DNA of 64,000 nt from Halarcobacter sp. (GCA_048571215.1 CP182352.1:1856001-1920000); one strand, 5' to 3'; counted from the stretch's first letter, positions 28,496-51,629 are shown. Numbers and translations: made by a program. The notes: generated by a model not told the origin, from the sequence alone.

Positions 28496-29032
28496 TTAAT
28501 TCCTCATTTTAAAAGCTGGGATAACAACTCTTTTTTTATCTTTTTTATCTATTATAAACATATATTTATCATCTTTATTTATAACATAAAATTTTTTTAT
28601 ATCTTTTAAAAGTATATCTGTAAAACTATTAGTATAAAATGCTATACCACTATTTAGTTTTTGAAATTTTTCTTTACTTTCAATTCTAATTAGATCTCCA
28701 CTTGAAGATATCATATATGTTATATTTTCATAAAAAGGATCATAATATGTATTATTTGTTTTAAACATAACCATATTGTTTTTCTCTTTATCTTGTGTAA
28801 TTTCTACCTGAGATTTTGACTCGGCAATATCTTCAACTATTATTTTATAAATATCATTTGTATTTTCACTTTTTTTTATATGTTCTTCAAACTTGTTATT
28901 TCCAACTCTTGTATCATCTAACACTTTATATAAAAAAGTTAGAAGAATCATAAATATAGTGATAGAGATAACAAGTTCTAAAATAGTAAATGATTTTTTA
29001 CCTTTAAATAGGTTTGCGTTATTTTTCATCAA
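28496..29032 (-). CDS. T2SS minor pseudopilin (GspJ-like)
   Basis: KKSFTILELVISI prepilin motif; position in cluster. Confidence 0.78.
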   Translation of the reverse strand: MMKNNANLFKGKKSFTILELVISITIFMILLTFLYKVLDDTRVGNNKFEEHIKKSENTNDIYKIIVEDIAESKSQVEITQDKEKNNMVMFKTNNTYYDPFYENITYMISSSGDLIRIESKEKFQKLNSGIAFYTNSFTDILLKDIKKFYVINKDDKYMFIIDKKDKKRVVIPAFKMRN

Positions 29033-29421
29033 AGGGATAATTTAAACCTATATATATCTTTTTTAGTTTTGTCAAAACTATATGTTGTTTTAAACTCACT
29101 AATTTTTAATGTAAAGTTATCGTACTTTAAATCTTCTGTATCTAAAATATCATCTTTTACATTCACTTTTACTTGTTTTAACTCTCTTCTTAAATCATCA
29201 TCTTTTATATTATACAATCTATCCAAATATACATTTTTATTTCTTTTACTTGCTTCATCTGTATTTATTGCAAAAAGTAAATAGTCTCTGTTTTTTCTAT
29301 TTTCATCTGCTTTTCCTAGGATAAAGATATTATTACTTTTTATTTGAAACATAGAAACCATTACAGTTGATAAAAGTACAACAGCAATTATTACTTCCAT
29401 CAATGTAAATGATTTTTTCAT
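29029..29421 (-). CDS. T2SS minor pseudopilin (GspI-like)
   Basis: MKKSFTLMEVIIA prepilin motif. Confidence 0.78.
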   Translation of the reverse strand: MKKSFTLMEVIIAVVLLSTVMVSMFQIKSNNIFILGKADENRKNRDYLLFAINTDEASKRNKNVYLDRLYNIKDDDLRRELKQVKVNVKDDILDTEDLKYDNFTLKISEFKTTYSFDKTKKDIYRFKLSL

Positions 29422-29422
29422 A

Positions 29423-30928
29423 CTATTTTATACCTATTCTTATAGCTTCATCTACCGAGGTTTCACCATTTATTAACATAACTCTTAATTGGTCTTGTAT
29501 AGGTATCATTCCATTATTTGTAGCAAGTTTAAGCAAGGTACTATCATCAACATCACCTTTTAAATACTCTTTTATCTCATCACTTATAACAAAAAGTTCA
29601 CCTAAAGCTACCCTTCCACTATATCCTGTAAAATTACAAGCTTTGCATCCTGTCGCTTTATATATCGTATCATTATCATTTAAATCAAAAATTTCATGGG
29701 AAGCATGAGAAGGTTCAACCTCTTTACACTCTGGACAAAGTTTTCTAACTAATCTTTGTGCTAAAACTGCTAAAAGTGAAGATGAAATTAAAAACTTCTC
29801 AACTCCCATATCAATAAGTCTAGTTACTGCAGCTGTTGCTCTATTTGTGTGTAAAGTTGAAAAAAGCAGGTGACCTGTAAGTGCTGCTTGCACAGAAATA
29901 GATGCTGTTTCACTATCTCTAATCTCCCCCAACATTATGATATCAGGATCTTGTCTTAAAATCGATCTAAGTCCTGAAGCAAAAGTAAGACCAACTTTAT
30001 TGTTCACTTGTATTTGTGAGAACTCATTTGATTTGTACTCAACTGGGTCTTCTATGGTAATGATATTTTTCTCTTCACTTACAACTTGATGTAAAAGTGA
30101 GTGCAAAGTTGTAGACTTACCACTCCCTGTAGGACCTGTTACTAAAACCATTCCATAAGAGTTTTGTACAACTTTTTCAAGTTCATCTGTAATATATTTT
30201 GGAAATCCAAGTTCAGAAACACTAAGCAAATCACCACTTTGCATCAATATCCTCATAACAACTCTTTCCCCATAAAAAGTTGGCAAAACAGATACCCTAA
30301 TATCCAAGGTTTTACCCGCTATTTTTACTTGGGTTCTACCATCTTGAGGAACTCTTTTTTCACTAATATCAAGGTTTGAAACAACTTTGATTCTTGAGAT
30401 TACTAAAGACATAATATTTTTATCTAACTCAATATGTTTTACTAAAACCCCATCAACCCTATATCTTACCTCTGCTTTAAACTCATGCATCTCTATATGT
30501 ATATCTGATGCTTTCTTTTTTATAGCTTGATAAAAAAGTGAGTTTACAAACTTGATAATTGGTGCTGATTCTTCAGAAGTTAAAATATCACTTCCAACTT
30601 TCAAGAACTCACTTATAGAAAAGTCTTCATCTTCTAAAGTTGCATCCTCTTGTTGCTGTTGGATTGCACTCATCTCTTTATCTGTTTTTATCTCTAAAAA
30701 TCTATTGTATAACTTCTCAAAAGAGATATCATCTAAGAAAACAATCTCTTGTTCATAATCACATTTTGATAGATAATCAAAAGAGATACTAATATGTTCA
30801 TTTGATAAAGCAATTACAACTTTTTCATCTAAAGTTGTAAAAAGTACAAAGTTTTTTAGGGCAATATTTATATCTGCTATATCTTCATATGGTGTAAGTG
30901 TTGTATTGTGTATCTCTTTTATATTCAT
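29423..30928 (-). CDS. gspE: T2SS ATPase
   Basis: ASDIHIE, GPTGSGKSTTL, TIEDPVE, LRQDPDIIMLGEIRD, AALTGHL, tetracysteine motif. Confidence 0.95.
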   Translation of the reverse strand: MNIKEIHNTTLTPYEDIADINIALKNFVLFTTLDEKVVIALSNEHISISFDYLSKCDYEQEIVFLDDISFEKLYNRFLEIKTDKEMSAIQQQQEDATLEDEDFSISEFLKVGSDILTSEESAPIIKFVNSLFYQAIKKKASDIHIEMHEFKAEVRYRVDGVLVKHIELDKNIMSLVISRIKVVSNLDISEKRVPQDGRTQVKIAGKTLDIRVSVLPTFYGERVVMRILMQSGDLLSVSELGFPKYITDELEKVVQNSYGMVLVTGPTGSGKSTTLHSLLHQVVSEEKNIITIEDPVEYKSNEFSQIQVNNKVGLTFASGLRSILRQDPDIIMLGEIRDSETASISVQAALTGHLLFSTLHTNRATAAVTRLIDMGVEKFLISSSLLAVLAQRLVRKLCPECKEVEPSHASHEIFDLNDNDTIYKATGCKACNFTGYSGRVALGELFVISDEIKEYLKGDVDDSTLLKLATNNGMIPIQDQLRVMLINGETSVDEAIRIGIK

Positions 30929-30929
30929 C

Positions 30930-32867
30930 TTACATACCCAATATTTTTCTATGTTTCTCTTGGATACTTAGCTCATCATCTTTTTTTGTTTTACTATTTT
31001 TAGATTTATTTAATTTTTCATCCAAATCATGAAGTTTCATATCATAGTTTGTTTTCTCTTGTTGTGCTTTTATTTGTTTTTGTTTTAATCTAATCAATGA
31101 ATTTTTTAAATATCTATCTTCTAAAACTTTTAACTCAGATAATTGTTCTCTAACATAGGTTAAATCTTTTGATTTTGGGATTATATATGGTGTTATTATC
31201 ACAACTAAACTCTTTTTTGTTGAATCGGTTTTATCATGGGTAAATAATCTTCCAACTAATGGAATATCACCTAATAATGGAATTTTACTTTCTGTTGATT
31301 CCTCTTTATTTTGGATGAGTCCACCTAAGATTACACTCTCTCCATTATTTACAATCGCTGTAGTTTTAACCTCTTTTTTTGAAGTATCTGCATTACCACT
31401 GTTTGTTTGTGTTGTCTTTACATCTTCAAGTATTGTATTTATCTCTAAGGTTACTTTATTGTCATTTGAGATTCGTGGTTTCACTTTCAAAGTTAAACCC
31501 ACATCTTCCCTTTGGTAATTTTCATTTGTAGTTCCACCATCAGTTACACTTGAAGAGGTCTTTATAGAAATAGTTTCTCCAACATATATAGAACTCTCTT
31601 TATTGTTTATCGCTAAAATTGAAGGTTCTGATACTATATCCAAAGCTCCATCTTGCTTAAGTAAAGAGATAGATGCCCCTAATGCTAAACCCTCACTTAA
31701 AGTTGGAATAGATAAACCTATTTTTGTTACATCAAAAGCTAAAGCCTCTCCACCATTTAAAGATGAAGCAAAAGTAGCAAGACCACTACTACTTGATTTA
31801 CCACCAAAAATACCATATTTTACTCCAAGTTCATCCACTAAAGAATCATTTAACTCTATAATTCTAGCTTGTACATAAACTTGTGCCTTATCTTTATCAA
31901 GTTGTCCTAAAAGTGTTTTTATATACTCTAATTCATCACTTCTACCCATCAATACTATTGAGTTAGTCTCTTCATCTACAGAAGATAGAGGTTTATCATT
32001 TGGATCTACATAAACTTTTTTCCCAATAATACTATCTATGATTTTTATAACATTTTTTGCTTCAACATTTTTTAGTGGATAAACTTCAACAACCCTTTTT
32101 ATTAAAGAATCATTAGAATCAATTTTTTTAATATATTTTTTTAAATAATCTGTATTTTTCTCATTTCCAATTAAAACTAAAGAGTTATCCTCTTTATTTG
32201 CTATCACATCAACCTTTTCAGTTTCTATTTTTACATCAAAAATAGATTTAACTATTGCGTCTAGATTTTTTTTAGCATCTATTGCAGTTATATTTTTAAG
32301 GGGAATTGTTATCATAGATTTTTTTGCACCTATTGTCATAATTCCAACTATTTTTTTTACTGTTTTTATATTATCTTGAAAGTCAGTCAAAACCAAAGTA
32401 TTTGCTTCTTTATTTGTAACTAACTTTGCATCCTTTGAGATAAGATGTCTTATTTTTGAAGCTATATAATCTACATTTGCATTACTTACTTTAAAAACCT
32501 CTGTTACCATTTGATTGTAGTTTTGTTTTAGTTTTGAAGTTACTACAGGTACATTGTTTTTTGCACTCACATTTAGTTTTACTATTCTTAGAATTTTTCC
32601 ATTATTTATAAGTGTATAACCTTTGTCCTCTAGAACATAAATAAGTATTTTTACTAATTCATCTTTGTTTACAGGCTTATTTGATATAAAATCAACATTT
32701 CCTTTTATATCATCGGTCAATAAAATATTTTTATCAATAATCTTAGAGGTGATTTTAACCAAATCCATAATCTTTAAATCTTTAAAATTTATATTTATTT
32801 TTTCTTCTTGTGCAAAAGAGCCTATTGATAAAAAAACTACTAATAATATAACACTAATCAATCTCAT
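30930..32867 (-). CDS. gspD: T2SS secretin
   Basis: N0/N-domains, QVYVQARIIE, DVGLTLKVKPRI, KIPLLGDIPLVGRLF. Confidence 0.95.
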   Translation of the reverse strand: MRLISVILLVVFLSIGSFAQEEKININFKDLKIMDLVKITSKIIDKNILLTDDIKGNVDFISNKPVNKDELVKILIYVLEDKGYTLINNGKILRIVKLNVSAKNNVPVVTSKLKQNYNQMVTEVFKVSNANVDYIASKIRHLISKDAKLVTNKEANTLVLTDFQDNIKTVKKIVGIMTIGAKKSMITIPLKNITAIDAKKNLDAIVKSIFDVKIETEKVDVIANKEDNSLVLIGNEKNTDYLKKYIKKIDSNDSLIKRVVEVYPLKNVEAKNVIKIIDSIIGKKVYVDPNDKPLSSVDEETNSIVLMGRSDELEYIKTLLGQLDKDKAQVYVQARIIELNDSLVDELGVKYGIFGGKSSSSGLATFASSLNGGEALAFDVTKIGLSIPTLSEGLALGASISLLKQDGALDIVSEPSILAINNKESSIYVGETISIKTSSSVTDGGTTNENYQREDVGLTLKVKPRISNDNKVTLEINTILEDVKTTQTNSGNADTSKKEVKTTAIVNNGESVILGGLIQNKEESTESKIPLLGDIPLVGRLFTHDKTDSTKKSLVVIITPYIIPKSKDLTYVREQLSELKVLEDRYLKNSLIRLKQKQIKAQQEKTNYDMKLHDLDEKLNKSKNSKTKKDDELSIQEKHRKILGM

Positions 32868-33669
32868 AATTTAACTCCACGATTTCATTATTTCTCAAAA
32901 CTTCAATACTTAGATAATCAATATTATTTATCTGATTATAAACTTTAAATGCATCTGCATAAGAGTTCATTTTTGTTCCATTTATTGATTTGATAACATC
33001 ACCTTTTACTAATCCTAATTTTCCAAATACAGAGTTTAGATTTACTCTATCCACTTTAAAACCTTCTATTTTATTACCAACTCTAACATCTGTTATTGCA
33101 ATATTATTCCAAACCTTATCAATATCATTTACATAAGAGTTTAAATAATCCCTTTTTACTTTTATTTTTCCATTTGAGAAACTAATTTTTTCTTTTGTAT
33201 TATTTGATAAATTATTTGTAAGCTCATATTTAACATCTTCATCCGTAGGCAGTTCAAGTTTAAACTCTTTTAGATTTTTTTCAAAAACAATATAAGTTTT
33301 AAATAGCTTTGTTAGAGTATAAGCATTAAACTTTTCATATTGAGCTAAGATTATACTCTTATGTGAAGATTTATCTTCTATTATTGCCCAGCCACCATTT
33401 GTACTAGTTGAGTACACAGCTTTTAATTGATACTTAGAAAGAGTTGCAACTGTTTTAATCTCTTTTGGTTTAGCAACATCACTATTATTTGATAAAGAAT
33501 AAAAACCACTATATTTTTTATAATTTATTGAGACATTATCCTCATCAACAAATTCAACACCACTTTTTGGTAAAAAAATAAAAAGAACTGTATTTAGAAT
33601 ATACGCAAAAAGTATTATATAGATATATATAATCAGTTTTTTATATATAGTATTAGAAACGCTGTTCAT
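32854..33669 (-). CDS. gspC: T2SS GspC-like protein with PDZ domain
   Basis: TM, WAIIE, C-terminal PDZ (FGKLGLVKGDVIKSING); probable start MNSVSN. Confidence 0.82.
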   Translation of the reverse strand: MNSVSNTIYKKLIIYIYIILFAYILNTVLFIFLPKSGVEFVDEDNVSINYKKYSGFYSLSNNSDVAKPKEIKTVATLSKYQLKAVYSTSTNGGWAIIEDKSSHKSIILAQYEKFNAYTLTKLFKTYIVFEKNLKEFKLELPTDEDVKYELTNNLSNNTKEKISFSNGKIKVKRDYLNSYVNDIDKVWNNIAITDVRVGNKIEGFKVDRVNLNSVFGKLGLVKGDVIKSINGTKMNSYADAFKVYNQINNIDYLSIEVLRNNEIVELNYEID

Positions 33670-34180
33670 AATAATACTTCCCATCTTTTAATTTAAACTG
33701 CGATAATAGATTTCTATATTTTGACTTCATTATTGAAGAGGGTTCCAAAATAGCAACAAGTTTTCTATTCAATATATCAACATTTCCATTTAAACTTCCA
33801 AAATCTCCTGAGGCTTTTATATATGCTGTTTTAAAATCTATTATTGAGTGTTTTATAGTTATATTTGATATTTTTTGAGGTAAAAAGTTTTGAAACTCTT
33901 TTGCTACTAAAATATTTTTAAACTCTATTTTTGAATAAAATAAAAGTGTAAAAATATCTATATTTTCAATATATGCGCTTTTTATTTTCTCAAAGTAAAT
34001 AGTAGAATCTTTTACCTGTAATGATATATACTTATCTTTTTTAATCTCATTTGAGATTATAATTGAGTTTTTTTCTAAATTCTTTTCTAGTAGATTAAAC
34101 AACTCAACTTTTGGTAAGAAAACTAAAAAAGCTAAAAGAAAAACTAAAATATATGAGATTGATTTTAATAAAAACTTCAT
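33653..34180 (-). CDS. T2SS GspN-like protein
   Basis: N-terminal TM ending FLP; position in cluster. Confidence 0.55.
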   Translation of the reverse strand: MKFLLKSISYILVFLLAFLVFLPKVELFNLLEKNLEKNSIIISNEIKKDKYISLQVKDSTIYFEKIKSAYIENIDIFTLLFYSKIEFKNILVAKEFQNFLPQKISNITIKHSIIDFKTAYIKASGDFGSLNGNVDILNRKLVAILEPSSIMKSKYRNLLSQFKLKDGKYYYEQRF

Positions 34181-34575
34181 TATCTAAATCCTATTTCTAA
34201 ATATATAGAAGTTTTTTCTAATTCTATTTTTTTTATTATAAATTTATCATTTAACACCCTATTTAAAAACTGTTCTAAAATATTTTGTTTATTTGATTCA
34301 ATTTTTACTTTTATTAGGTTTGAATTTTCACTTTTAAGTATTTTTTCATTTCTAAAACTTGAGCTTTTTAATAATCTATCTAATCTAGTTTTAACTCTAT
34401 TTTTATCAAACCAAGTTGTTTTGTATTCGTTAAAGTTTTTTGCACTTGAATTGATTTGATAATAATCGCTACTCATATTTTCAAAATCACTTTTTTTATT
34501 TATTACTAGTATTATTGAAAGGATAAATATAGTTGCAATAAAAGCTAAAATATATATTGGATTTAGTTTACTCAT
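34180..34575 (-). CDS. T2SS GspM-like protein
   Basis: Single N-terminal TM, 131 aa, follows the GspL-like gene. Confidence 0.55.
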   Translation of the reverse strand: MSKLNPIYILAFIATIFILSIILVINKKSDFENMSSDYYQINSSAKNFNEYKTTWFDKNRVKTRLDRLLKSSSFRNEKILKSENSNLIKVKIESNKQNILEQFLNRVLNDKFIIKKIELEKTSIYLEIGFR

Positions 34576-35495
34576 AATTTAATACTCACTTTTAAAACCA
34601 AAGAGTTTAAACTTGTTGAAATGTCTTTAAATTTTGCTTTTAAGTATGACTCAACTTGTTTTTTATCTGCACCTATATATTCCAAAGAGATATTTTCTTT
34701 ATCTAAAGAAAAAGATTTTAGATTGAACTTTTTGTAAGCTAAAATATAATCGATGGCTTCCCTTTTTTCATCTTCCGATTCTACTACTGTTTTATATCTA
34801 TTTAATATAGATTTTGTTTGAATAGAACTTGCAGGGAGTTTATTTATCTTTTTTGTTTTTTCTATATTTTGCTCTAAGGTATTTTCTTCACTATTATAAG
34901 CAAAATATTTAACCCCATTTAAGATAATCAAGATACCCAAAATGGTAAATATAGAATAATAAAATTTAGTATCTATATAATCATTATAAAGTTTTATTTG
35001 AACCTTATGGTTACTAAGTTTGATATTGTTTAAAACCCTATTTAAATCTACAGTTTCACTTAAAAGTTGATTTGGAACCTTTATTAGTATCTCATCACTT
35101 GTATACATAAACTTTTGATTATCAACCTCAAAGGCATTGAACTCTTTACATTCGTTTTGTGCAAAATAGAGTGAAGAAACATTTGATATGGGTATCATTG
35201 CTTTTTTTATTGCTTCATATACTACTTTATTATTAAAAGCAAAGCATAAATATTGATTATCTTTTAGCTTTTTAACTTGATAAGTTAATGTTGTAGTATC
35301 ATTTACTATATCTTCAAAAAGTGTAGGTAAGACATGTCTTGCTTGAGCTTCTGTTTTAACAGGTATTTCAAACTTTCTAATCCAATAAAACTCTGGGGAG
35401 ATTATGATATCAACTTTTGTGTCTAAAGTTTGCACTAGCTTACTATTTGTTGTCAAAAATATCTTTTTTGTTTCTTTACTTGAAACTAACATCAA
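34572..35495 (-). CDS. T2SS GspL-like protein
   Basis: Cytoplasmic N-domain (IISPEFYW...LPTLFED), central TM, periplasmic tail. Confidence 0.6.
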   Translation of the reverse strand: MMLVSSKETKKIFLTTNSKLVQTLDTKVDIIISPEFYWIRKFEIPVKTEAQARHVLPTLFEDIVNDTTTLTYQVKKLKDNQYLCFAFNNKVVYEAIKKAMIPISNVSSLYFAQNECKEFNAFEVDNQKFMYTSDEILIKVPNQLLSETVDLNRVLNNIKLSNHKVQIKLYNDYIDTKFYYSIFTILGILIILNGVKYFAYNSEENTLEQNIEKTKKINKLPASSIQTKSILNRYKTVVESEDEKREAIDYILAYKKFNLKSFSLDKENISLEYIGADKKQVESYLKAKFKDISTSLNSLVLKVSIKL

Positions 35496-36117
35496 AATAT
35501 TGAACCTCGCCTTCTTTTTTTAATATATAATAAGCACTTGCAGTAGCACTATTGTATTTTACTTTGATATCTAACTCATATAAATTATCTGGTTTAAAAA
35601 ATCCTAGATTATCTTTTATCTTTAATATATCTTTTGAGTAACTTCTTAATATAAAAGTATTTATTATATCATCTAGTTGCTTACTGTTTTCAACTTTAGT
35701 GTCACTGTTTTGAAACTTTTCTTTATATATATCTACTAGATAATCATAATTAAAAACATTGTTATTTGAAAAATACTCTCTTAGAATATTTGAATCTTTA
35801 ACAGCTATATCATTTATATCTACCCTATCATATTTTTTTAACTTAAAAGATAAGTCTAACTCTTTTAGTTTCAGTTTCATAAAACTATCTTCAAAAATAT
35901 CATTTTCTAAAACTTCATCTATATCCTTACTGTTTTGCTTTAGAAGTTTTCCCACCTCTTTTTGAAAATCTTCAATGGAGATAATAACTTGTGTATTATC
36001 TTGAATATAGTTTTGTTTTTGTAAGAATTTATCTGTATCATCTAAATTTTTTACAACCAATAAAGAGATAGCTGTTATAAAAAAAAGTGATATTATAAGA
36101 ACTACACCTTTTTTCAA
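35476..36117 (-). CDS. T2SS GspK-like pseudopilin
   Basis: MKKGVVLIISLFFITAISLL GspK-type N-terminus. Confidence 0.7.
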   Translation of the reverse strand: MKKGVVLIISLFFITAISLLVVKNLDDTDKFLQKQNYIQDNTQVIISIEDFQKEVGKLLKQNSKDIDEVLENDIFEDSFMKLKLKELDLSFKLKKYDRVDINDIAVKDSNILREYFSNNNVFNYDYLVDIYKEKFQNSDTKVENSKQLDDIINTFILRSYSKDILKIKDNLGFFKPDNLYELDIKVKYNSATASAYYILKKEGEVQYFDVSFK

Positions 36118-36120
36118 ATC

Positions 36121-37335
36121 TTATCCTAAATTCATAGAAAATATAGGTAATAACATAGCAACAACAATAAAACCAATAATTGAACCAACAATCAACATAA
36201 AAATAGGCTCCATTAGCGATAACAATAGGTTTATTTTGTCCCTATTTGATTCATTGTAAAGTTTTGCTAGATTGTTTAATATCTCACTTAATCTACTTGT
36301 ATCTTCCCCAATTGCAATTGAATGAATAAAAGACTCATCTAGTTTATAAATTTTGTTTTGAAGTAATAAACTTGAAAGTTTTTTTCCCTCAACAACACTT
36401 TGTGAAGCATCCATAAAAACTTTTCTTATAACTGTGTTTTTTAAAATATTTGCACTTAAGTTTATAGCTTGAACTATAGGTACTCCCGATTTTATCAATA
36501 TTGAGTTCATATAAGAAAACCTTGATAATTCACTGTGCTCTATTAGTTTAGAGAAAAATGGAATTTTCAATAAAAACTTATCAAAAGCATATTTAAACTT
36601 AACACTTTTTTGTAAAGAAAAAACAAAAATAAATATAGCAGAGATTAAACCTGCAATCACAAACTGATAGTTGTTTGAAAAGAAATCTCCCAAGGCTATT
36701 ACTATTTTTGTACTTTGGGGTAACTCTTGGTCAAACTGGGTAAAGATAGAAGTGATTTTAGGAACAATAAAACTCAACATAAATCCAACCATAAAAAATG
36801 AAACAAAAAGTATAAATAGTGGGTATGCCATAGCAGAAGCAACTTGTTTTTTGATTCTATCTTGCTCTTTTAAAAAGATAGATAACTCCATCAATACAGA
36901 TTCTAACAAACCACCATTTTCACTAACCTTTATAGATTGTTTATAGAAACTTGGCAGGGCTAAAACTTTTTGAGACTCCAAAGCATCATAAAACCTTTTT
37001 CCCTCATCTAAGTACCCCTTTACAGTCTCAAAAAAAGTAAAAAGGGTTTTATTGTTTTTGTATCTTTGTTTTAGTAAATTTATAGAACTTATAAGTGTAA
37101 TTCCTGAGTTTAAATATATACTTAAATCTCTACTTATATATGAAAGGGTTGAGAGATCAAGTTTTTTTCTTCTTTTGAAACTTACTTTTCCAAAATCGAT
37201 AGAATCTTCTTTTAAACTAGTGTATAAAATCCCTTTGGCTTTTAATTTAAGCTTTGCATCTTCTACACTACTTGCTTCGATTTTTGATTTTATTTTTAGA
37301 CCACTTTTATCTAAACCACTATACTTATAAAGCAT
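36121..37335 (-). CDS. gspF: T2SS inner-membrane platform protein
   Basis: LNSGITL, SENGGLL, AMAYP, LMEPIFMLIVG...AMLLPIF. Confidence 0.94.
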   Translation of the reverse strand: MLYKYSGLDKSGLKIKSKIEASSVEDAKLKLKAKGILYTSLKEDSIDFGKVSFKRRKKLDLSTLSYISRDLSIYLNSGITLISSINLLKQRYKNNKTLFTFFETVKGYLDEGKRFYDALESQKVLALPSFYKQSIKVSENGGLLESVLMELSIFLKEQDRIKKQVASAMAYPLFILFVSFFMVGFMLSFIVPKITSIFTQFDQELPQSTKIVIALGDFFSNNYQFVIAGLISAIFIFVFSLQKSVKFKYAFDKFLLKIPFFSKLIEHSELSRFSYMNSILIKSGVPIVQAINLSANILKNTVIRKVFMDASQSVVEGKKLSSLLLQNKIYKLDESFIHSIAIGEDTSRLSEILNNLAKLYNESNRDKINLLLSLMEPIFMLIVGSIIGFIVVAMLLPIFSMNLG

Positions 37336-37870
37336 CTTTTACCTCTATTTCCATTTTATCAAACTCATCTAAAATCTCATCAGTAGATTTATAAACCTCT
37401 ATATTATTTGAGATTGACTTTATTAGATATACTTTTTCATCTAATGTATCTAAAACAATATTTTTATGTTTTTTATCTTTATTTATTGTTAATTCAAAAA
37501 ATGGATTATAAGAGATATCATCTATTTTTACTTCTAAAAACTCCATAGGATTTAAGTCTCTACCATACTTATAAACCTTAGGAATTTCATAGAATAAATT
37601 TTGTATTTTTACACTATATTTTTCATTATTATCTATAAAAACATAACAAGGCAAATTCTCTTCTTCAACACATATAAAAGAGATTTGATCCTCATATTTA
37701 AACTTTTGTTCTAAAAACTCTTTTAGATTTTCTAATTTTACTTTATACTCTTTTTCTTTTTTAGGTTGAAAGGAAGAGATAGCTATAAAAGCTATAATAC
37801 CAACTAAGATTAAAACAACCATCATCTCTACTAGAGTAAAAGCGTTTTTCACTCCAATAGATTTTTTCAT
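37325..37870 (-). CDS. T2SS minor pseudopilin (GspH-like)
   Basis: KNAFTLVEMMVVL prepilin motif; follows gspG. Confidence 0.78.
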   Translation of the reverse strand: MKKSIGVKNAFTLVEMMVVLILVGIIAFIAISSFQPKKEKEYKVKLENLKEFLEQKFKYEDQISFICVEEENLPCYVFIDNNEKYSVKIQNLFYEIPKVYKYGRDLNPMEFLEVKIDDISYNPFFELTINKDKKHKNIVLDTLDEKVYLIKSISNNIEVYKSTDEILDEFDKMEIEVKDAL

Positions 37871-38245
37871 CTATTTATTACACTTTGAATAATAAATATC
37901 ATCCTCTGTACTCTCTTTTTTATCTGCCCCAAAAGAGATAAGTTCAAATGAATCTTCGTTTTGAACATATATAAAATCATTGCCCCATGAATCTTTTGGT
38001 AATTTTCCATCATCAAAATATTTTTTCTCAACTAAAATATTTAAGCCCTCTTCTGTAGTAGGATAGCTTGAATTATCTAATTTATAAAGTTTTAAAGCCT
38101 GACTTACACTTTTCATTTGAACACAAACAATCTTTGCTTTTGCCTCTTCACTCTTACCTGTCAAATTTGGTAAAACAAATGCAGCTAATAAACCTAAAAT
38201 AATAATTACAACCATCAATTCCATCAATGAAAACGCTTTTTTCAA
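37871..38245 (-). CDS. gspG: T2SS major pseudopilin
   Basis: KKAFSLMELMVV, LKLYKLDNSSYPTTEEGL, PKDSWGNDFIY, SFGAD. Confidence 0.93.
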   Translation of the reverse strand: MKKAFSLMELMVVIIILGLLAAFVLPNLTGKSEEAKAKIVCVQMKSVSQALKLYKLDNSSYPTTEEGLNILVEKKYFDDGKLPKDSWGNDFIYVQNEDSFELISFGADKKESTEDDIYYSKCNK

Positions 38246-38315
38246 TTCAAATCCTTATAAAAAATAAAAAATATTATATCTAATTTTGATTATATAAAAG
38301 TTACAAAATAGGAAA

Positions 38316-38576
38316 TCACTCTGTATTTTCACTATCTGCTGAATTTTTAAATTTTTCTATTCTTTCTAAAAACTCATCTGACATCTCTTTTGATTTCAAT
38401 AAAAATTCCCTTGAAAAAGAGCATTTTTTTGTATCTGTTTCACTCTCTTTTTGGCACTGTAAAACCTTTTGATTTTCACTGCCATTTTTTTTTAAATTTG
38501 GCAAAATAAATGAAACAATCAAAATCAAAAAAATAATTAAAACCAACCACTCTCTAGTTGAATATGCTTTTTTCAA
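38316..38576 (-). CDS. Short divergent GspG-like protein
   Basis: MKKAYSTREWLVLII...FILPNL...LQC aligns with the GspG N-terminus; AAGGA SD and TTG start as for gspG. Confidence 0.6.
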   Translation of the reverse strand: MKKAYSTREWLVLIIFLILIVSFILPNLKKNGSENQKVLQCQKESETDTKKCSFSREFLLKSKEMSDEFLERIEKFKNSADSENTE

Positions 38577-38627
38577 ACCAAAATCCTTTAGATAAATTTA
38601 TTAGAATTAAAATTAAAACTAATTTTT

Positions 38628-39260
38628 TTATTTCACAAAAAATCCTTCAATAGATTCTATAGAGATAATATTTGGAATACTCTTACTATCTAGTTCATTT
38701 TGAATTATACTATCACTTGATATAGCTTTATACTCTTGATTTACTGAATCATATTTCCAGATAACTTTTACATTTGGGTTATCTGTGAAAAACTGGTTTA
38801 TATCACTTATTGTTTGTGAACCTATCATATTCCATTGGTTCGGTGTGATTGTTATACTATCTGCTAATCCATCACCTAAGATGTTTACTGATGTATCTTG
38901 TGACACTTTTATCCAATACCCATATCCATCTTCTAAACTTGTTAGTGTATTTGAGTTTGAGTTTACATCCCAATCTTTCCATACTCCATTTTGCAAACCT
39001 TTTATTGTTTGAATATAGCTATTATTTAAACTTGAAATATCTATATTTGAGTTTAATTCCAAGGCTACTAGATTCCATCCTGAGATTAGATTTAAAGTAA
39101 ACACTCTTGAATTAGCATCATTTGCCTTTGTTCCATCTTGATACTCTTCCAAGTTTGTTTTCCCATCACTATCTAGGTCGCCATTTGCATCATTTACTAG
39201 TGGATTTAATCCATTTGCTATTTCGTAACTATCTGAGATAGTATCGTTATCATTATCTTG
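38628..39260. repeat. Duplicated C-terminal cassette, copy 1 (copy 2 at about 40532-41156)
   Basis: Hand alignment of 38751-38880 with 40649-40778 shows 4 mismatches in 130 nt. Confidence 0.9.
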
Positions 39261-40535: not shown

Positions 40536-41156
40536 TTTACAAAAATCCCTTCATTTGGTTTTATACTTAAAATACTTGGTATACCTTTTGTATCCAAATC
40601 ATTTTGGATATCTGTATCACTTGATATAGCTTGATATTGCCCGTTTGTATATTTCCAGATAACTTTTACATTTGGATTATCTGTGAAAAACTGGTTTATA
40701 TCACTTATTGTTTGTGAACCTATCATATTCCATTGGTTTGGTGTGATTGTTATAGTATCTGCTAAACCATCACCTAAGATATTTACAGGTGTAGCTTGTG
40801 ATACTTTTATCCAATAGGCATATCCATCTTCTAGGCTTGTAAGAGTATTTGTAGTTGAAGTTTTGCTCCAATTTTTCCATACACCATTTTGTAAACTTCT
40901 TATTGTTTGGATATTACTATTATTTAAGCTAGATATATCTACATTTGAGTTTAATTCTAAAGATACTAGATTCCATCCTGTTTTTAGGTTTAGGGTAAAC
41001 ACTCTTGAGTTAGCATCATTTGGTTTTGTTCCATCTTGATACTCTTGAATATTTGTTTTTCCATCATTATCCAGATCATCTTGACTATCATCTACTTGTG
41101 GGTTTAAGCCATTTGTATTTTCATATTCATCACTCATACCATCATTATCTGTATCT
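40532..41156. repeat. Duplicated C-terminal cassette, copy 2
   Basis: Near-identical to 38628-39260. Confidence 0.9.
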
Positions 41157-42028: not shown

Positions 42029-42062
42029 TTAAACTCCTAGTATTTCTTTTTAAATAAACCTC

Positions 42063-42131
42063 ATATCAATAAACATAATTTATTTACTGATATAAAACTT
42101 ATTTATAAAAGATAGTAAAAAATACTATCTT
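42063..42131 (-). terminator. Two tandem hairpins (probable internal terminator/stabiliser)
   Basis: AAGATAGTA-N5-TACTATCTT (42109-42131) followed by T on the minus strand; second 13-bp stem with G-U pairs at 42063-42093. Confidence 0.65.
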
Positions 42132-42203
42132 CTACAAATTTAAATATACCTTTATCCATAATATTATTATTTTTATAGATAATTTTTTTTGCCACGATTA
42201 CAA

Positions 42204-43130
42204 TTAGAAAACTGGACTTGATGGTGGCATTTCTATTGATGTGTCAGTAGGTGTTGGTACACTATAATCATTTGGGTTTACAAATGTTAGGTTTCCAAAG
42301 TTTACTACATCATTGTTTGCAGTAAATATATCACTTTGTGCTATAAATGTTGTATTATCAAAAGTTGTTTCACCCTCAAATACTTTTAACACAACTTCTT
42401 GATTAAAATAGTCTGCATTGATTTGAATAGCTGACACTGTTTTGCTTAGCATTGTTCCTTGAAATAGTGTAAACTCACCACTACTATTTGCATTTGATTG
42501 GTCTATATTTTGTGTAGAGTATATAAAAACAGTATAAGGTAAACCATTTACTCTAAGGCTTGCTTTTGAAGCAATTTCATCTCCACCTATTCCCCATGCT
42601 CTATAATCAAACATTTTAAAAATCATATCAAAATTAGCTGTTGCTTTTATCCAATAACCTTGATTTGGTAAACTTTCACCTCTTGAATAATTTATTGACT
42701 TTAAATATGTAAAAGAACTTGTATTCCCTACTCCTCCACCTGTTGCTTTTTCAACTTCTGGGTAATTTGCTAAATCAGAAGCTTGTATAGTTTCAAATGG
42801 ATAAATTAAATTCCAACCCTGTTTTAATGCAATTTTTGTTGGTACAGAAGATTTTGTATAAGTAAGTGTAGTATTATTTAAAGATTTTACCCAATAAGCC
42901 TGTCCTAGAAGAAAATCTCCTCTTGAATAATTTATTGACTTTAAATATGTAAAAGCATTTGTATTTCCTTCTCCTCCACCTGTTGCTTTTTCTATATTTG
43001 AATTATTTGAAAGTATTGAAGCACTATCAGTTGACGGTATACCTATTAGATTCCATCCCTCTTTTAACTCTAAACTATCAGCTAATAAAAAAGAACTACT
43101 TAACAGTAAAAATAAATACATTTTTTTCAT
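42204..43130 (-). CDS. Secreted protein: 2x module-W repeat + module X + Pro-rich tail (putative adaptor)
   Basis: Signal peptide; LKEGWNLIG...AYWVK and LKQGWNLIY...GYWIK; FDYRAWGIGGDEIASK domain; EMPPSSPVF. Confidence 0.85.
   Translation of the reverse strand: MKKMYLFLLLSSSFLLADSLELKEGWNLIGIPSTDSASILSNNSNIEKATGGGEGNTNAFTYLKSINYSRGDFLLGQAYWVKSLNNTTLTYTKSSVPTKIALKQGWNLIYPFETIQASDLANYPEVEKATGGGVGNTSSFTYLKSINYSRGESLPNQGYWIKATANFDMIFKMFDYRAWGIGGDEIASKASLRVNGLPYTVFIYSTQNIDQSNANSSGEFTLFQGTMLSKTVSAIQINADYFNQEVVLKVFEGETTFDNTTFIAQSDIFTANNDVVNFGNLTFVNPNDYSVPTPTDTSIEMPPSSPVF
42679..42992. repeat. Intragenic direct repeat, 240-bp (80-aa) period
   Basis: 42679-42752 vs 42919-42992; first 37 bp identical. 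Confidence 0.9.
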
Positions 43131-43132
43131 AA

Positions 43133-43507
43133 TTAATCCTTTTGTATTGTAATTGAAAATTTAATTACATCCTTATCTAAAAAAAGTTCTTCACTTTCTC
43201 CTACTAGCTTTCCATTTTTGAAAGCTTTTATTAAAATTGGTTGTAGCTTATAGTTTGAAGCTAATTTTATAGGTTCCACTTTTTTACCATTTACTGTCCC
43301 AAATAAAAGTGTAAAATCACCATCTAAATTTACATCATCTTTTTTAATATCTAAAAAAGAGAAAGGCAGAAGAGTAATCTCTTCAGCCTCTAACTTAATA
43401 GATGATTTAGAAGTAATTTCATTTCCACCAATATCATAAGCTCTATATTCAAAAGCATTTAAAGCTAGAGCACATATAAGTACTAAGAAAAAATTCCTTA
43501 TCACCAT
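43133..43507 (-). CDS. Small secreted protein consisting of module X alone
   Basis: Signal peptide then FEYRAYDIGGNEITSK...; aligns with the C-domain of 42204-43130. Confidence 0.82.
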   Translation of the reverse strand: MVIRNFFLVLICALALNAFEYRAYDIGGNEITSKSSIKLEAEEITLLPFSFLDIKKDDVNLDGDFTLLFGTVNGKKVEPIKLASNYKLQPILIKAFKNGKLVGESEELFLDKDVIKFSITIQKD

Positions 43508-43514
43508 TTATCCT

Positions 43515-46500
43515 TTATTTACTTAGAATTTCATCGAAATCTAAAGTTTCACCATCTGCGGGTATAGCTTTGTATCCAGTTGATGTTACAAGATTTCCAT
43601 TTGAGTCAAATACTTTTAACATCAAGTAGCCATTACTTGCATGAGCAGGATCTAATCCAAATACCTCTTGAGTCCCATTCACTTTAAATGAAACAAAGAC
43701 ACCAATTCCACTTCCTTGTACAACTTCTGTAGAACTATATGCTTTAATTGTATAATTTCCTATAGTTATAGTTACTGGATTTGTTAAAGCATCTATTGAA
43801 GTAATCTCTTCAACTGAAGAAGCAGTAATAGTTGCATTATCAACCCCATTAGCTGTATCATTTTGGAAATAATATGTAAAACTATTTCCTCCATTTGCAA
43901 CTATTCTTTCCTCATCATCAGTTGAAATCTTTGCATCTGAATTTGTAGGTTCAGTTTCATCGTTACCGCAAGTAACTGAAAAAATATTTGTATCAAACTC
44001 TTTCCATCTTCCATAACAAGTAGATTCTAAAACTCCACCCATATATCCAACTTCAACATATCTACCATTTAGATAGAATATGCTTGACATGTAATCTCCT
44101 CCACCAAGATCAATTAATACAACTTTATTAGAAACTACAGCCGAAACATTCAATCCTGTCATATCTTCAAAGAAATCCATAGCATTAGTACCAGACCAAA
44201 TATAATCAGTTTCTGTAAATCCTGCTTGTTTTTCTTGAGATTGAACGATATTATTATTTCCATCTAAACTAAAGCTATGTAATATTTTATAGTTTGCAGA
44301 TAAATCTACATCAATACTATCACTATCAGAAGTCCATCCTCCAACAACTGTTGTACTAGGTGTATACATAGGATTATTGTTATTATCATATCCATTAAAT
44401 GTTCCAAGTACAACTTCTCCAGTTGGTTTTAACATAAATACTTCTGGTTCTTGGAAATATGTATATCCATCAGTCAATCTTTGAACTAAACCTGATATAT
44501 CATGACTCAAATCATTATTATAGTCCCAATTCCAATTCCAAGTGTTTTGTTCTGTTTCTGTTTGCCCATCAGCTATTGTACAAGTGTTATTTGTTCTATA
44601 AAGGTCACTATATACAGTCTCTTTATACACATTTACTTTTTGAGTATCACTTGACACGCAATTCATAACACCAGCAAAACTAAATGACTTTCCATCTGGT
44701 GCTAGTGTTATTGGATTTGTTTCACTTTTTTGAAATTCAAATACACCATTATTCTTGTCATACATATTCATTGTCATTTCACTAGAAGTAAAAGTTGTTA
44801 CATCATACCAAGTTGAATCATCACTAAAGATTACAGTGTCACCTGCTGAGATTGATGCAGTTGGATATGTTAAATCTACGGCAGAAAAACCTTTAACTTT
44901 TACAACCGTTGTTTCATCTCTAGGATCTGGTGTTGTAGTTGTAGTATTTACTCTACTTCTAATACCTGCACTTGTAAATCCTAAATTATAATTTTCTGAA
45001 TTTGGGATAGTGAAAGTATCTGTTGCAATAGTAGTTGTACCCTCTTTTACAGTGAATGTAATCACTCCAGTTGAAGAATCAACACTAATACTTGGATTTA
45101 AATCTTTACCTACATAACTTCCTGTTGAAATTAACGTTGTATTTGTTAACTCTTGAGTTGTTTTATTTCCATTTGTATCATATGTGTCTAAATCTATTAA
45201 ATAAATAATTGAACTCTTTTTGATAGAAATCTTAGTAAAAAGTCCAGTTAAACTATGTTTAGAGTCATCCATATAAGCAACTAGTTCAACTCTTTGAGCA
45301 TTTGCTGCTGCATTTTCTAAAGATACCGTTGCTTGAACAGTTGATTTTTTATTATCAAATGAAGTTTTAATTTCACTTATAGAATCTGTAGCATCATCTT
45401 TTTGTGATGTTAACGTTACTATATGGGTTGTATCATCATACGTAACATCATTTCCTGTTACTGTATATTTAGATGAATCTTTTCTCTCAACAAAATCATA
45501 TCCATATTCTGTAAATGATATTGCTCCCATAGATTGTGTATCAACTGCACTTGTACCATCTTCACTTAGTGCATAATATTTTGTTGGGTCAGCAGTATAA
45601 TTAGCAACTAATAAATCAACTAGTGCTTTAAAATCACTATTTGCATAATCAGTTTCAGCTTGTTGCGTAAAGTTAAATAGATAAGAATATCCAGAACCTG
45701 AACTTTGTGTTTCCATACTAACTACTTTGTCTACTAAATAGTTAGAGATAGCTACTCCAATATATACTACTATTTTAGGTTGTGCACCTGAATCAATAAA
45801 ATTAGAGTTGATTGCAGTTTGAGCAAGTTTAACAGAAGCATTTAATGCATCTGAATAAGGTGAAACTAAATCTCCACTTCCATCAAGTGCTACATTAGGA
45901 GTCAAACCATAGTCTGTCATACTTAAGAAAGTATTTACTGCAATAATAGCATGCATGATTGGATAATCTGATGCTTGAACTGTAGAACCTGAGAACAATG
46001 ACATAGGGTCAACATCTAAATCAGACTCAGATATACCTGAAATACCTGCTACTGTTAAGATATCTATGATTTGAGTTTTTGTAAATCCATTTAAATTCAT
46101 TGTTGTTAATGGTGATGTTATAGGATTATCAACACTTGATTTTAATAAACCTTCAAATGGTACACCAACGTGTGAACCTTTTACAGTACCTAACATGATA
46201 ATTGGAGTTCCATCTGGTTGAATCTGACTAAATGTGAAGTAACCATTTTCATCAGTTACAGTAGATACTGGTTCATTTGTATCACAAGTATCATTTTTGT
46301 TTAAGTCTGCGCAAAATTGAGCCCCAATAATATATGGATCAACCGCTACATGAGCTTCTTTTACAGTGACATCAACTGTTACAGGAGTTGAACTAGCTGT
46401 TCCATCACTTGCTACTATAGTAAATGAATCACTTGAAGTGTTAGAACTTGATGTATATGTATATGAACCATCACTGTTTACTACTGCACTACCATAAGAA

Positions 46501-49500: not shown

Positions 49501-51629
49501 CCAAATTGAACAGGTGTTGTATCTGCTGGTGCTGCTGTAAATGAAATAAAACTTGTTTCATAATCACCAACTGTTAATTTAGTTTCTGTTTTTTCTAAAC
49601 TATCTGCTGAAGAAGTATGTTTTACAATAACTGTATCACCTACACTTACTGTTCCTTTATCTGATGTCCATGTTGAACCATTATCTAAACTATACTCACC
49701 ATTTTCTATAGAAATAGCAGTATCAGCATCAATTCCTGAGATAGTGATACTATTTGAAGTGATTTCACTATCAGTTGATGTATCTTTTTTAATATCGAAC
49801 ATAAATTCATCTGGAGTTGTATCATCCACACCATCTGCAACTTTTGTAACTGATACAAAATCTGTTTCATATCTACCAATCATAAGAGTTGATGTAGTTT
49901 TTGTATTATTCTCTTTTGATGCGATATGTCGAACCATCACTTTATCACCACTTGAAAGTGTACCATCTTGATCTGTCCATGTCGTACCACTATCAAGAGA
50001 ATATTCACCATCTTCTATTTTAATATTTACACTTCCTGTAATACCTGAAATAGTTTTTTCAGTTGAAACTATATATTCATCATTTGTATCTGTACTTAAT
50101 AAAGTATCATATTGAGTTGCAAAAGTAAATGCATCAGGTAACAAATCTTGTCCCATTGTAACCGATACAAAAGGTACTTTAACTTCACTGTCGCCTGAAC
50201 CAAAAGTTAATACAGATTTTGTAACTGTTTTATAAGAAGATGCTGTAGTATGTCTAACATAAATTGTATAACCATTATATATAGTACCACTACTAATCCA
50301 AGTCTGTCCTCCATCTAAACTAAACTTACCTATATCAATAGAAACAGGGGTTGCAGCATTAATACCAGAAACTGTAGTAGAAGTACTAACTTGACTATTT
50401 AAAGGTTCCCCATTATCACTATTACCATTTTTAACAGCAAATGCAATTGGAGTAATTTTTGTATCTGCTACAAATGGATCTGATTGAGTTTCAACTTTAA
50501 AATCAACTGGTACACCACCAATAGTTACAATAGCTTTTACTTTTGTATCATAAGTACTTGAAGATGTCATTTTAACTTTAAGTAAATCACCATTATTTAT
50601 AGTTGCATCAGTAGTTGTACTATCTATCCAAGTTGTTCCACCATCTTTTGAAAAGCTTGCATTTGAACTAATACTAACCTTTGCAGTCCCTCCATAAATT
50701 CCATTTACTATAATCTCGTTAGAGGTATATTCAGTAGATAAAAAGGCTTCATTTATATCATCAAACTCTAAACTTGAATCAAAAGATAATTTACCAGTTA
50801 AAGAGCTATCATCTCTAGCAACTTTATTTTCAACTTCAACATTTGACTCAATATTGGTTGCTATTGTAGATAAATCTACATTTTTCTCTTGTTGTTTAAT
50901 TTCATCTATAGCAACAATTGCTTCACTATCAATCTCATCATCTGTTTCTAAATCATCTGCAATTTGATCTAAAACTTTTTCAGGGTTAGATGTTTTAAGT
51001 AAAGATGCAGATAACTTTAAAAGTTGTGTATTTGCAGCTTTATTTGTAGCATCATCACCATTTGTTAAATCCAAATCTTCTAAATTTGCACCATTTAAGT
51101 CAATATTAAAAGCTTTAGCAACTTTTGCTTTAGCTTCCTCTTTTACAGTTGATAAGGCTACAGTTTGACTATTTTTAGCTGCTTCGCTTAAAGAAGCTAA
51201 AATACTTTTTGCTGCAACATGTGTCAAAATATTAACATTTACATTTGAGTCAACAGAATTTGTCATATCCACAACAGCAGTTAATAAACCTCCAGGGATA
51301 AATTGACCTGTATTTTCATCAAGATAAGAACCTTTTACAGTAAGAAGAGTTACCCCTGTCCAAGGAACAGACATAGAAAATTTACCTTTTTTATTGATTG
51401 TTGAAGTAGCAAAATCTGTACCATCTGTACTACCATAACTTGCAACTCCCGCATTATCAAATGTGATTTTTTGTGCAGTTACAATTGACCCCTCTTTAAA
51501 AGGTCCCTTTGCAGGAAGACCACCTGCACCACCTACACTAGAGGAACTTCCTCCTCCACCACAACCAACTAGCATACCTGCTAGAACTATTGAACTGGCC
51601 ATTGTTTTAAATGTTTTTTTGCTAATCAC
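43515..51629 (-). CDS. Giant (2704-aa) surface lipoprotein with Ig-like/cadherin-like repeats (adhesin/scaffold-like)
   Basis: GTG start after AAGGAG; lipobox LVGC; about 100-aa GEYSLD.G.TW repeats; P.WA.F...TG.LSGTP Ig repeats; NDAPV...EDT...FTP..NYNG cadherin-like repeats. Confidence 0.92.
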   Translation of the reverse strand: MISKKTFKTMASSIVLAGMLVGCGGGGSSSSVGGAGGLPAKGPFKEGSIVTAQKITFDNAGVASYGSTDGTDFATSTINKKGKFSMSVPWTGVTLLTVKGSYLDENTGQFIPGGLLTAVVDMTNSVDSNVNVNILTHVAAKSILASLSEAAKNSQTVALSTVKEEAKAKVAKAFNIDLNGANLEDLDLTNGDDATNKAANTQLLKLSASLLKTSNPEKVLDQIADDLETDDEIDSEAIVAIDEIKQQEKNVDLSTIATNIESNVEVENKVARDDSSLTGKLSFDSSLEFDDINEAFLSTEYTSNEIIVNGIYGGTAKVSISSNASFSKDGGTTWIDSTTTDATINNGDLLKVKMTSSSTYDTKVKAIVTIGGVPVDFKVETQSDPFVADTKITPIAFAVKNGNSDNGEPLNSQVSTSTTVSGINAATPVSIDIGKFSLDGGQTWISSGTIYNGYTIYVRHTTASSYKTVTKSVLTFGSGDSEVKVPFVSVTMGQDLLPDAFTFATQYDTLLSTDTNDEYIVSTEKTISGITGSVNIKIEDGEYSLDSGTTWTDQDGTLSSGDKVMVRHIASKENNTKTTSTLMIGRYETDFVSVTKVADGVDDTTPDEFMFDIKKDTSTDSEITSNSITISGIDADTAISIENGEYSLDNGSTWTSDKGTVSVGDTVIVKHTSSADSLEKTETKLTVGDYETSFISFTAAPADTTPVQFGFAFKNDVALNTLIESAEKTIKGINTATSISVSGGEYSLDKGVTWTSANSTVTDGDTIRVRHTSSSNNNEKTETTLTVGGFSTKFVSQTVMAAPTLGTNTPATTVTTGSEYKFEPQAQNATSWTISRKPDWAIFNTVTGVLSGTPTKVSQQTTYSDIRITAKNSGGQVFIPPFDITVGNYTPVLTPETIEKTITQGTVFNYSVSVEDKGDGETKTFTLENAPAFVSIDSSTGTISGTAPTVTGEVLHTFTIKVTDGSNATDTTTVNLTVKEFSDIPAVPVISGTPTTTIAQDGNYSFVPTAYDDNSANLTFSIENKPSWATFNTTTGELSGTPSNDDVGTYSNIIISVTEAGDKVSLSPFSIEVTDVNDLPTISGTPATTIAEDTEYSFTPTANDVDAADTLTFAITNKPSWATFDTATGKLSGTPTNDDVGTTNAISITVTDGKSTPVALSSFNLEVTNVNDAPVVKTQLTNKTLDENSTIQVDVTPGFEDIDANDVLTYDVTYSNGTLLPQWMSFNPTTGLLDVTPNGDDSLIGDHIMKVTATDESNEKVSQTFTITVTNVNDTPVAVGVANGGTTPEDTELTIAISSLVANDIDADSDSLTILNSDLSNPQGGTVAVVGTNIVFTPTENYNGPASFDYKVFDGTASSANSVTVGLTISSVNDAPVPSNDNAGSTDEDTPITISKASLLANDNDVEQDTLDIVSVSNPQGGTVAISGSDIIFTPIANYNGAASFEYTVNDGTDDSATTATVGLTVNAIDDAPVANNDSFSTAINKPLTITSAQLLGNDTDADTGAQLSVKTLGTPTTGGTFTDSDISDGSIVFTPDANFSGVVTFTYTIEDETNLTSNTATATITVTDNTKPVAVDDSVTGTNEDTKLTIAIADLVQNDTDGDNDSLTISSVSNPINGTVTIVGTNIEFTPDADYNGAASFQYTVNDGIDDSTNQATVAFTIDAVNDAPTFTSGDSKTVYVGQSVSGSVTASDVDNDDATLTYSLGTDASYGSAVVNSDGSYTYTSSSNTSSDSFTIVASDGTASSTPVTVDVTVKEAHVAVDPYIIGAQFCADLNKNDTCDTNEPVSTVTDENGYFTFSQIQPDGTPIIMLGTVKGSHVGVPFEGLLKSSVDNPITSPLTTMNLNGFTKTQIIDILTVAGISGISESDLDVDPMSLFSGSTVQASDYPIMHAIIAVNTFLSMTDYGLTPNVALDGSGDLVSPYSDALNASVKLAQTAINSNFIDSGAQPKIVVYIGVAISNYLVDKVVSMETQSSGSGYSYLFNFTQQAETDYANSDFKALVDLLVANYTADPTKYYALSEDGTSAVDTQSMGAISFTEYGYDFVERKDSSKYTVTGNDVTYDDTTHIVTLTSQKDDATDSISEIKTSFDNKKSTVQATVSLENAAANAQRVELVAYMDDSKHSLTGLFTKISIKKSSIIYLIDLDTYDTNGNKTTQELTNTTLISTGSYVGKDLNPSISVDSSTGVITFTVKEGTTTIATDTFTIPNSENYNLGFTSAGIRSRVNTTTTTPDPRDETTVVKVKGFSAVDLTYPTASISAGDTVIFSDDSTWYDVTTFTSSEMTMNMYDKNNGVFEFQKSETNPITLAPDGKSFSFAGVMNCVSSDTQKVNVYKETVYSDLYRTNNTCTIADGQTETEQNTWNWNWDYNNDLSHDISGLVQRLTDGYTYFQEPEVFMLKPTGEVVLGTFNGYDNNNNPMYTPSTTVVGGWTSDSDSIDVDLSANYKILHSFSLDGNNNIVQSQEKQAGFTETDYIWSGTNAMDFFEDMTGLNVSAVVSNKVVLIDLGGGDYMSSIFYLNGRYVEVGYMGGVLESTCYGRWKEFDTNIFSVTCGNDETEPTNSDAKISTDDEERIVANGGNSFTYYFQNDTANGVDNATITASSVEEITSIDALTNPVTITIGNYTIKAYSSTEVVQGSGIGVFVSFKVNGTQEVFGLDPAHASNGYLMLKVFDSNGNLVTSTGYKAIPADGETLDFDEILSK

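Follow-up and report, generated by a model that had tools for sequence, protein, structure and literature searches.

Five genes on the minus strand of the window, a 64,000-nucleotide stretch of Halarcobacter sp. DNA, encode proteins that are cross-linked by two recurring domains, X and W, and lie directly 5′ of a T2SS (gsp) gene cluster. We tentatively interpret this set, at a little under an even chance, as an anchor-and-tag display cassette, in which a lipid-anchored stalk would present X at its end and thereby hold tandem W pairs.

Layout of the locus and its two recurring domains

A sequence-only reading of the window had described five co-oriented signal-peptide genes just upstream of a T2SS gene set, and this arrangement was confirmed (Table 1). 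A basic and hydrophobic, signal-like stretch opens all five proteins (read from the sequence rather than called by a signal-peptide predictor), and the intergenic gaps from the first cassette ORF through to gspG are 7, 2, 175, –4 and 382 bp. The window contains twelve gsp genes. Secretin GspD, ATPase GspE, GspF, GspC and the major pseudopilin GspG were identified by family matches within this one cluster (GspC models at E = 2e-23, below cut-off), with N-methyl pseudopilins at the H, I and J positions; the prepilin peptidase is encoded elsewhere in the genome. Short-read contigs from two runs, possibly of the same source sample, cover the region and span the gspG-CAP junction with zero differing letters. 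The earlier reading had overlooked the 86-aa ORF between the CAP gene and gspG.

Table 1. Features of the cassette and the adjoining gsp cluster (positions counted from the first letter of the window).
Feature	Position	Strand	Remarks
Giant lipoprotein, 2704 aa	43515..51629	(-)	Lipobox, Gly/Ser tether, Ig/cadherin-like stalk, C-terminal X; predicted anchor
Domain X, divergent copy, extreme C-terminus of giant lipoprotein (aa 2603-2704)	43518..43823	(-)	Profile E 3e-8
Solo X protein, 124 aa	43133..43507	(-)	Signal peptide, no lipobox
W-W-X protein, 308 aa	42204..43130	(-)	Pro-rich C-terminal tail; predicted adaptor
W1, W2 of 308-aa protein	42852-43082, 42612-42842	(-)	W profile
X, then Pro-rich tail, of 308-aa protein	42279-42611, 42207-42278	(-)	
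PKD protein, 498 aa	40532..42028	(-)	Predicted cargo
PKD protein: acidic TSP3-like repeats, C-terminal W pair	41009-41155, 40535-41002	(-)	
CAP-domain protein, 635 aa	38628..40535	(-)	CAP domain, W pair; predicted cargo
CAP protein: acidic repeats, C-terminal W pair	39111-39257, 38631-39104	(-)	
86-aa ORF	38316..38576	(-)	Between cassette and gspG; degenerate GspG-like N-terminus, likeness by eye
gspG, major pseudopilin	37871..38245	(-)	PF08334, TIGR01710 over cut-off
gspH-like pseudopilin	37325-37870	(-)	N-methyl family match
gspF	36121-37335	(-)	PF00482
Four genes at gspK, L, M, N positions	33653..36117	(-)	No family match; names from position only
gspC (PDZ type), gspD secretin, gspE ATPase	29423..33684	(-)	TIGR02517 over cut-off; PF00437
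gspI- and gspJ-like minor pseudopilins	28496..29421	(-)	N_methyl matches

In the 2704-aa protein the lipobox LVGC is followed by GGGGSSSS, and the stalk matches the families Big_9, Cadherin_4/5 and He_PIG. T2SS-dependent lipoproteins carry a Gly/Ser- or Asn/Asp-rich sorting motif at +2 to +8, according to PMC12802150; the lipobox and the Gly/Ser-rich +2 to +8 stretch here (CGGGGSSS) conform to this motif, which was defined in Acinetobacter.

Module X had been claimed for the tip of the giant lipoprotein, the 124-aa protein and the C-terminus of the 308-aa protein. A profile from which window sequences had been removed (190 of 195 rows kept) found all three: among 5620 genome ORFs it matched exactly three genes (E = 5e-19, 2e-17 and 3e-8; next match 0.85). 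The copies of the 124-aa and 308-aa proteins match pairwise at E = 4e-13; the giant-tip copy is undetectable by pairwise comparison with the other window copies and was first reached by an iterated profile, at E = 3e-6. X of the 308-aa protein stops at residue 284, with the conserved Pro-rich tail beyond it, which refines the earlier placement. The 124-aa and 308-aa proteins do not match known families, and X, a well-predicted small domain, has no PDB match.

The corresponding W profile (212 of 221 rows kept, window sequences removed) found six repeats among the same ORFs (E = 3e-16 to 3e-5; next match 1.6), exactly in the three proteins to which the module had been assigned, the 308-aa, PKD and CAP proteins. 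By the two profiles, genome-wide, the 308-aa protein alone combines X and W, again as claimed. The W repeats are 75 aa long, predicted to be mostly beta strands, with conserved Trp, Tyr and Gly residues; a W-W domain measures about 155 aa and X 107 aa. In the 308-aa protein the two repeats are 52% identical to each other; in both cargo proteins the second repeat is degenerate, with 17% identity to the first. Adaptor and cargo W belong to different subtypes, 32% identical, so one X family would need to bind both. The PKD and CAP tags are 79% identical and the tails of the two genes share 82% DNA identity over 595 bp; these tails are a recent duplication.

Recurrence of the cassette and gene pairing of X with W

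Twenty proteins, 42–71% identical and with a conserved Pro-rich tail, make up the family of the 308-aa protein. The order giant lipoprotein-X, solo X, W-W-X is kept at 5 of 6 full-length loci of this family, and at the sixth a lipoprotein-X gene lies directly 5′ of the W-W-X gene with no solo X between. A W-tagged gene directly follows the family gene at 3 of the 6 loci, is absent from one, and in the other two that position is cut by contig ends. The giant bodies differ between loci (one, at L036, has little in common beyond the tip) and the cargo varies too. Sulfurovum-related and other genomes repeatedly show a minimal form, up to several times per genome: a small lipoprotein-X and, after it, W-W-X-cargo, W-W-cargo or solo W-W. 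Both a split arrangement, with solo W-W next to lipoprotein-X, and a fused one, W-W-X, exist. W-W-X genes without an adjacent lipoprotein-X occur at L087, L198, L199, L209 and L211.

X-ending lipoproteins that lack W make up 62 of the 150 X representatives. Another 36 contain W, almost always as W-W immediately N-terminal to X, and no lipoprotein among the 150 carries W. The stalks that end in X, predicted to be lipid-anchored, range from about 30 to 3000 residues, and in other lineages homologous small lipoproteins take the place of the solo X. By a crude pattern, a G/S/D/N-rich tether at +2 to +8, similar to the T2SS sorting motif, was found in 48 of 61 X-lipoproteins vs 18 of the 90 lipoproteins predicted in this genome.

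A W gene lies within two genes of 39 of the 42 distinct W-less X-ending genes (39 loci), a count that includes kin, which are not independent, and in which 28 of the 39 loci came from contigs or genomes first reached by searching for W; a lipobox is present in 28 of the 36 complete genes of this kind. As a control, a W gene follows 41 of 732 other genes of these loci, the gene window differing from that of the 39/42 test. Of 11 genomes found by X alone, 10 have W either within the X gene or in a gene beside it, and the remaining one is truncated. Identities of anchor X and partner W correlate (Mantel r = 0.71, 27 pairs; one pair dropped from the 27-pair comparison) and three X/W subtypes separate, although co-inheritance of linked genes suffices to explain both. 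Two subtypes coexist in one genome (G423), where between-subtype identity is 17–18% for X and 19–22% for W and within-subtype identity is 48% and 66%, respectively.

Cargo-free lipoprotein-X genes beside non-lipidated W proteins, in split and fused forms, are most simply accounted for if X holds W-W, as we infer. The giant lipoprotein would travel via the T2SS to the outer surface, where its X would bind the W-W of non-lipidated secreted proteins and retain them at the cell. The W-W-X protein may extend or branch the assembly: an upstream X would hold it, and its own X would be available to a further W-tagged protein. Solo X may cap or chaperone W pairs, and tag shuffling would swap the cargo, here PKD and CAP proteins and elsewhere GH9, lipase, PETase-like, CotH and GH25/CHAP proteins. 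On one contig (L031), tags 67–68% identical to the window PKD tag form the ends of three unrelated proteins, of Ig/PKD, lipase and CAP type. The window would thus encode a lipid-anchored Ig stalk, its W-W-X extender, one unattached X and two cargo proteins with tags, probably exported by the adjacent T2SS; the tether of the X-lipoproteins and the GspE counts given below speak for this route. The domains, their positions, the gene pairing and the matched subtypes are read directly, and each step past gene anatomy is deduced from sequence. For the scaffold, adaptor and cargo scheme that had been put forward earlier, gene order, X beside W, matched subtypes and shuffled tags argue in favour, and the X/W interaction at its core stays a prediction.

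Alternatively, X might pair with X: the lipoprotein X would hold W-W-X proteins by their own X, and W would have a separate role. An own X is present in 18 of the 27 partner proteins, anchor X is 32% identical to the X of its own partner vs 21% to others, and anchor and partner X cluster by cassette subtype. However, no X was found in 9 of the 27 partners, even by unfiltered search, which favours X-W over X-X pairing, and the PKD and CAP proteins of the window, which lack X, would go unheld. We regard X-X pairing as distinctly improbable.

A self-sufficient W fares better, though we still think it unlikely. W would then be a general surface- or substrate-binding module (SLH- or carbohydrate-binding-like) and X a co-inherited domain with its own ligand, with no protein scaffold. 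W is a large unnamed domain family of bacteria and archaea, abundant and unannotated on secreted proteins: N-terminally, C-terminally or internally, it is attached to GH9, peptidases, CBM9 and adhesins across Campylobacterales, Ignavibacteria, Bacteroidota and archaea, and its conserved Trp, Tyr and Gly suit such a module. X was not detected in 50 of 57 W genomes of the census below. This is also the chief weakness of the display reading, in which W must have another, older, X-independent role and X would be a lineage-limited adaptor to it; W in T9SS cargo, archaea and X-less genomes likewise shows that W does not require X. Yet a self-sufficient W leaves unexplained the lipoproteins consisting of a tether plus X that lie beside W genes (39/42), and it does not account for the fused and split forms.

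Distribution and relation to T2SS

In a census of 401 genomes of the order Campylobacterales, X was found in 7, W in 57 and a GspE-type ATPase in 173. All 7 X genomes carry both W and GspE. GspE is present in 53 of the 57 W genomes vs 173 of 401 overall (within-family exact P = 0.002, kin not independent), and the four W genomes without it have one W match each, two of them weak. Among X genomes the GspE excess was not significant within families (P = 0.07, kin not independent). X and W are therefore not equally common in genomes lacking this T2SS, the distribution that the sequence-only reading had named as counting against it. The T2SS is nevertheless far more widespread than either domain.

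The claim that the cassette is T2SS-coupled overstates linkage: all 7 X genomes encode a GspE, but only two of them, this genome and G120, have the cassette next to gsp. In G054 and G423 the cassette is not beside gsp, and in three more genomes the two lie on separate contigs. In the window gsp is followed by a pqiB-like gene; on the L031 contig the cassette lies beside an orthologue (68% identical) of this gene, making linkage to gsp plausible there. The cassette is scattered and rare, commoner in the Sulfurovum-related family (X in 10 of 171 genomes) and no hallmark of Arcobacteraceae (X in 3 of 141 genomes of the family and 0 of 17 of the genus). Its hosts are marine and sediment Campylobacterales. 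Among cultured organisms, Poseidonibacter lekithochrous has an annotated homologue.

The sequence-only reading had also suggested that X and W direct proteins to the T2SS. In this view they would be portable tags or export chaperones, and the cargo would be released. The GspE excess among W genomes is in line with this, in 4 of 14 genomes rich in W the W genes lie <20 kb from gsp, and lipoproteins need an additional, unidentified signal, according to PMC12802150. T2SS substrates may also remain surface-bound and no unified signal is known, according to PMC10128026. Against the tag reading, W is present inside T9SS cargo, even upstream of a genuine T9SS tail, and in archaeal proteins; among the 173 GspE-positive genomes, 120 have no W match and 166 no X; a homologous giant lipoprotein near gsp in a relative (G306) has no X; X is also missing from some ten further lipoproteins of this genome that have a Gly/Ser tether; and X lipoproteins free of cargo are hard to understand as tags. 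The targeting-tag claim is thus not supported, and we consider it very unlikely.

We rate it as equally unlikely that the genes form a mobile block, in which domains of surface proteins are shuffled at a variable site 5′ of gspG and the products do not interact: relatives have different genes at this site, the 17 same-genus genomes are free of X and the two cargo tails are recently duplicated, but cassette order and architecture are kept at ~45% protein identity, across three sequence subtypes and four families.

Comparison with known systems and significance

In cohesin-dockerin systems an anchored scaffold module captures enzymes by a short duplicated tag, with orthogonal subtypes, adaptors, and a tag homogenised within lineages. 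The predicted X/W logic parallels such capture, and W cargo includes GH9. W, however, is made of 75-aa repeats predicted to be beta-rich, whereas dockerin is a helical EF-hand pair; anchors here bear a single X, whereas cellulosome scaffolds bear arrays; and the host is a diderm, the anchor a lipoprotein and X-W binding a prediction. No match to Pfam dockerin was found in 34 W rows and none to Pfam cohesin among 34 X rows, although an unlisted cohesin family could escape fold searches; on this footing we do not count the set as a cohesin-dockerin system. Type V pili (Mfa/Fim) of Bacteroidota, which have lipoprotein pilins joined by donor-strand exchange, are likewise encoded in one operon that supplies an anchor lipoprotein, an extender and tip proteins, to which the predicted anchor and extender roles here may be compared by analogy.

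The T9SS C-terminal domain and similar sorting tags are also shuffled terminal tags on unrelated secreted proteins, but W is N-terminal and internal as well. T9SS tail models had no match among W sequences. Por_Secre_tail matched one of 34 X rows at a marginal E = 0.016, by which X is not a T9SS sorting domain, and CHU_C gave one match to X at E = 5.5e-4. The T2SS surface lipoproteins PulA, SslE/YghJ and InvL resemble the giant lipoprotein in having a Gly/Ser-rich tether, a location beside gsp and a gene at the gspN position, but are single enzymes or adhesins, and the available part of PMC12802150 describes for them no terminal module common to the lipoprotein and non-lipidated neighbours.

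At the level of titles and listings, we found no description of the cassette in the open-access literature. It may represent an independently evolved, cellulosome-like display system of Gram-negative cells, with a new-fold X socket, a pseudo-symmetric W-W tag, W-W-X chaining and orthogonal subtypes per cell, a possibility that we lean mildly against. The X/W logic resembles a known kind of display, and there is a real chance that the coupling pair is new. Even if the display reading is untrue, W is an abundant unannotated module of secreted proteins and X a small domain outside the matched PDB folds. If X binds W, the two would form a new protein-coupling pair without a solved relative. The cassette proteins would then be the first candidate T2SS cargo set named for environmental Campylobacterales, a subject on which our searches found no paper. 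Diderms would have a second way of displaying surface proteins in modular form, and the tags might serve enzyme assembly as an orthogonal set.

Surroundings of the cassette and other giant reading frames

Further genes continue downstream of gspJ in the window (Table), and on the L031 contig the pqiB orthologue adjoins the cassette. The 86-aa ORF possibly represents a decayed or specialised duplicate of a pseudopilin. The source genome encodes other giant ORFs, of which the two Gly/Ser-tethered lipoproteins are candidate T2SS cargo.

Table. Positions of additional features in the window, the source genome (G000) and genome G030
Feature	Position	Strand	Remarks
pqiA/pqiB-like genes	window 24030-27842	-	after gspJ, co-oriented
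SH3-type protein gene	window 27835-28494	-	after gspJ, co-oriented
86-aa ORF	window 38316-38576	-	between CAP gene and gspG; degenerate GspG-like N-terminus
Pro-rich PPxxP tail	window 42207-42278		after X
Giant ORF, 6788 aa	G000:C1:549978-570344		
Giant ORF, 2899 aa	G000:C1:1761041-1769740		Gly/Ser-tethered lipoprotein without X
Giant ORF, 1880 aa	G000:C1:2036260-2041902		Gly/Ser-tethered lipoprotein without X
Giant ORF, 12400 aa	G000:C1:3195873-3233075		
Second gspD copy (L154)	G030:C1:2026046-2027965		stand-alone; remaining gsp cluster absent beside it

Proline-rich tails

Beyond the window, PPxxP tails recur (loci L092, L136, L137, L140 and L229; entries P0101, P0142, P0166 and P0171) both after X, lipoproteins being among the proteins that carry them there, and, in some W-rich genomes, on several gsp-linked proteins (GspJ, the GspD N-terminus and small secreted proteins). 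The distribution is patchy; W or a component of the T2SS may bind these tails.

W outside the cassette

A single-copy W-W protein of 760-890 aa is widespread (loci L011 and L107-L123); it contains a beta-propeller domain (PF09826 in L011) and appears to explain many of the one-W genomes. At seven loci (L012, L013, L015, L206, L207, L209 and L211) a conserved ~770-aa W-W-X protein precedes a Tat-like protein of ~446 aa. The latter is DUF1501 in L012, and DUF1800 was found in an L138 W protein related to the W-W-X protein; therefore, the two neighbours may be a DUF1800/DUF1501 pair. At Ignavibacteria loci L026, L029 and L053, peptidases and other proteins occur in runs of five successive members, all of which contain a W pair inside the chain, ahead of a T9SS-type tail. 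W merits a separate family model.
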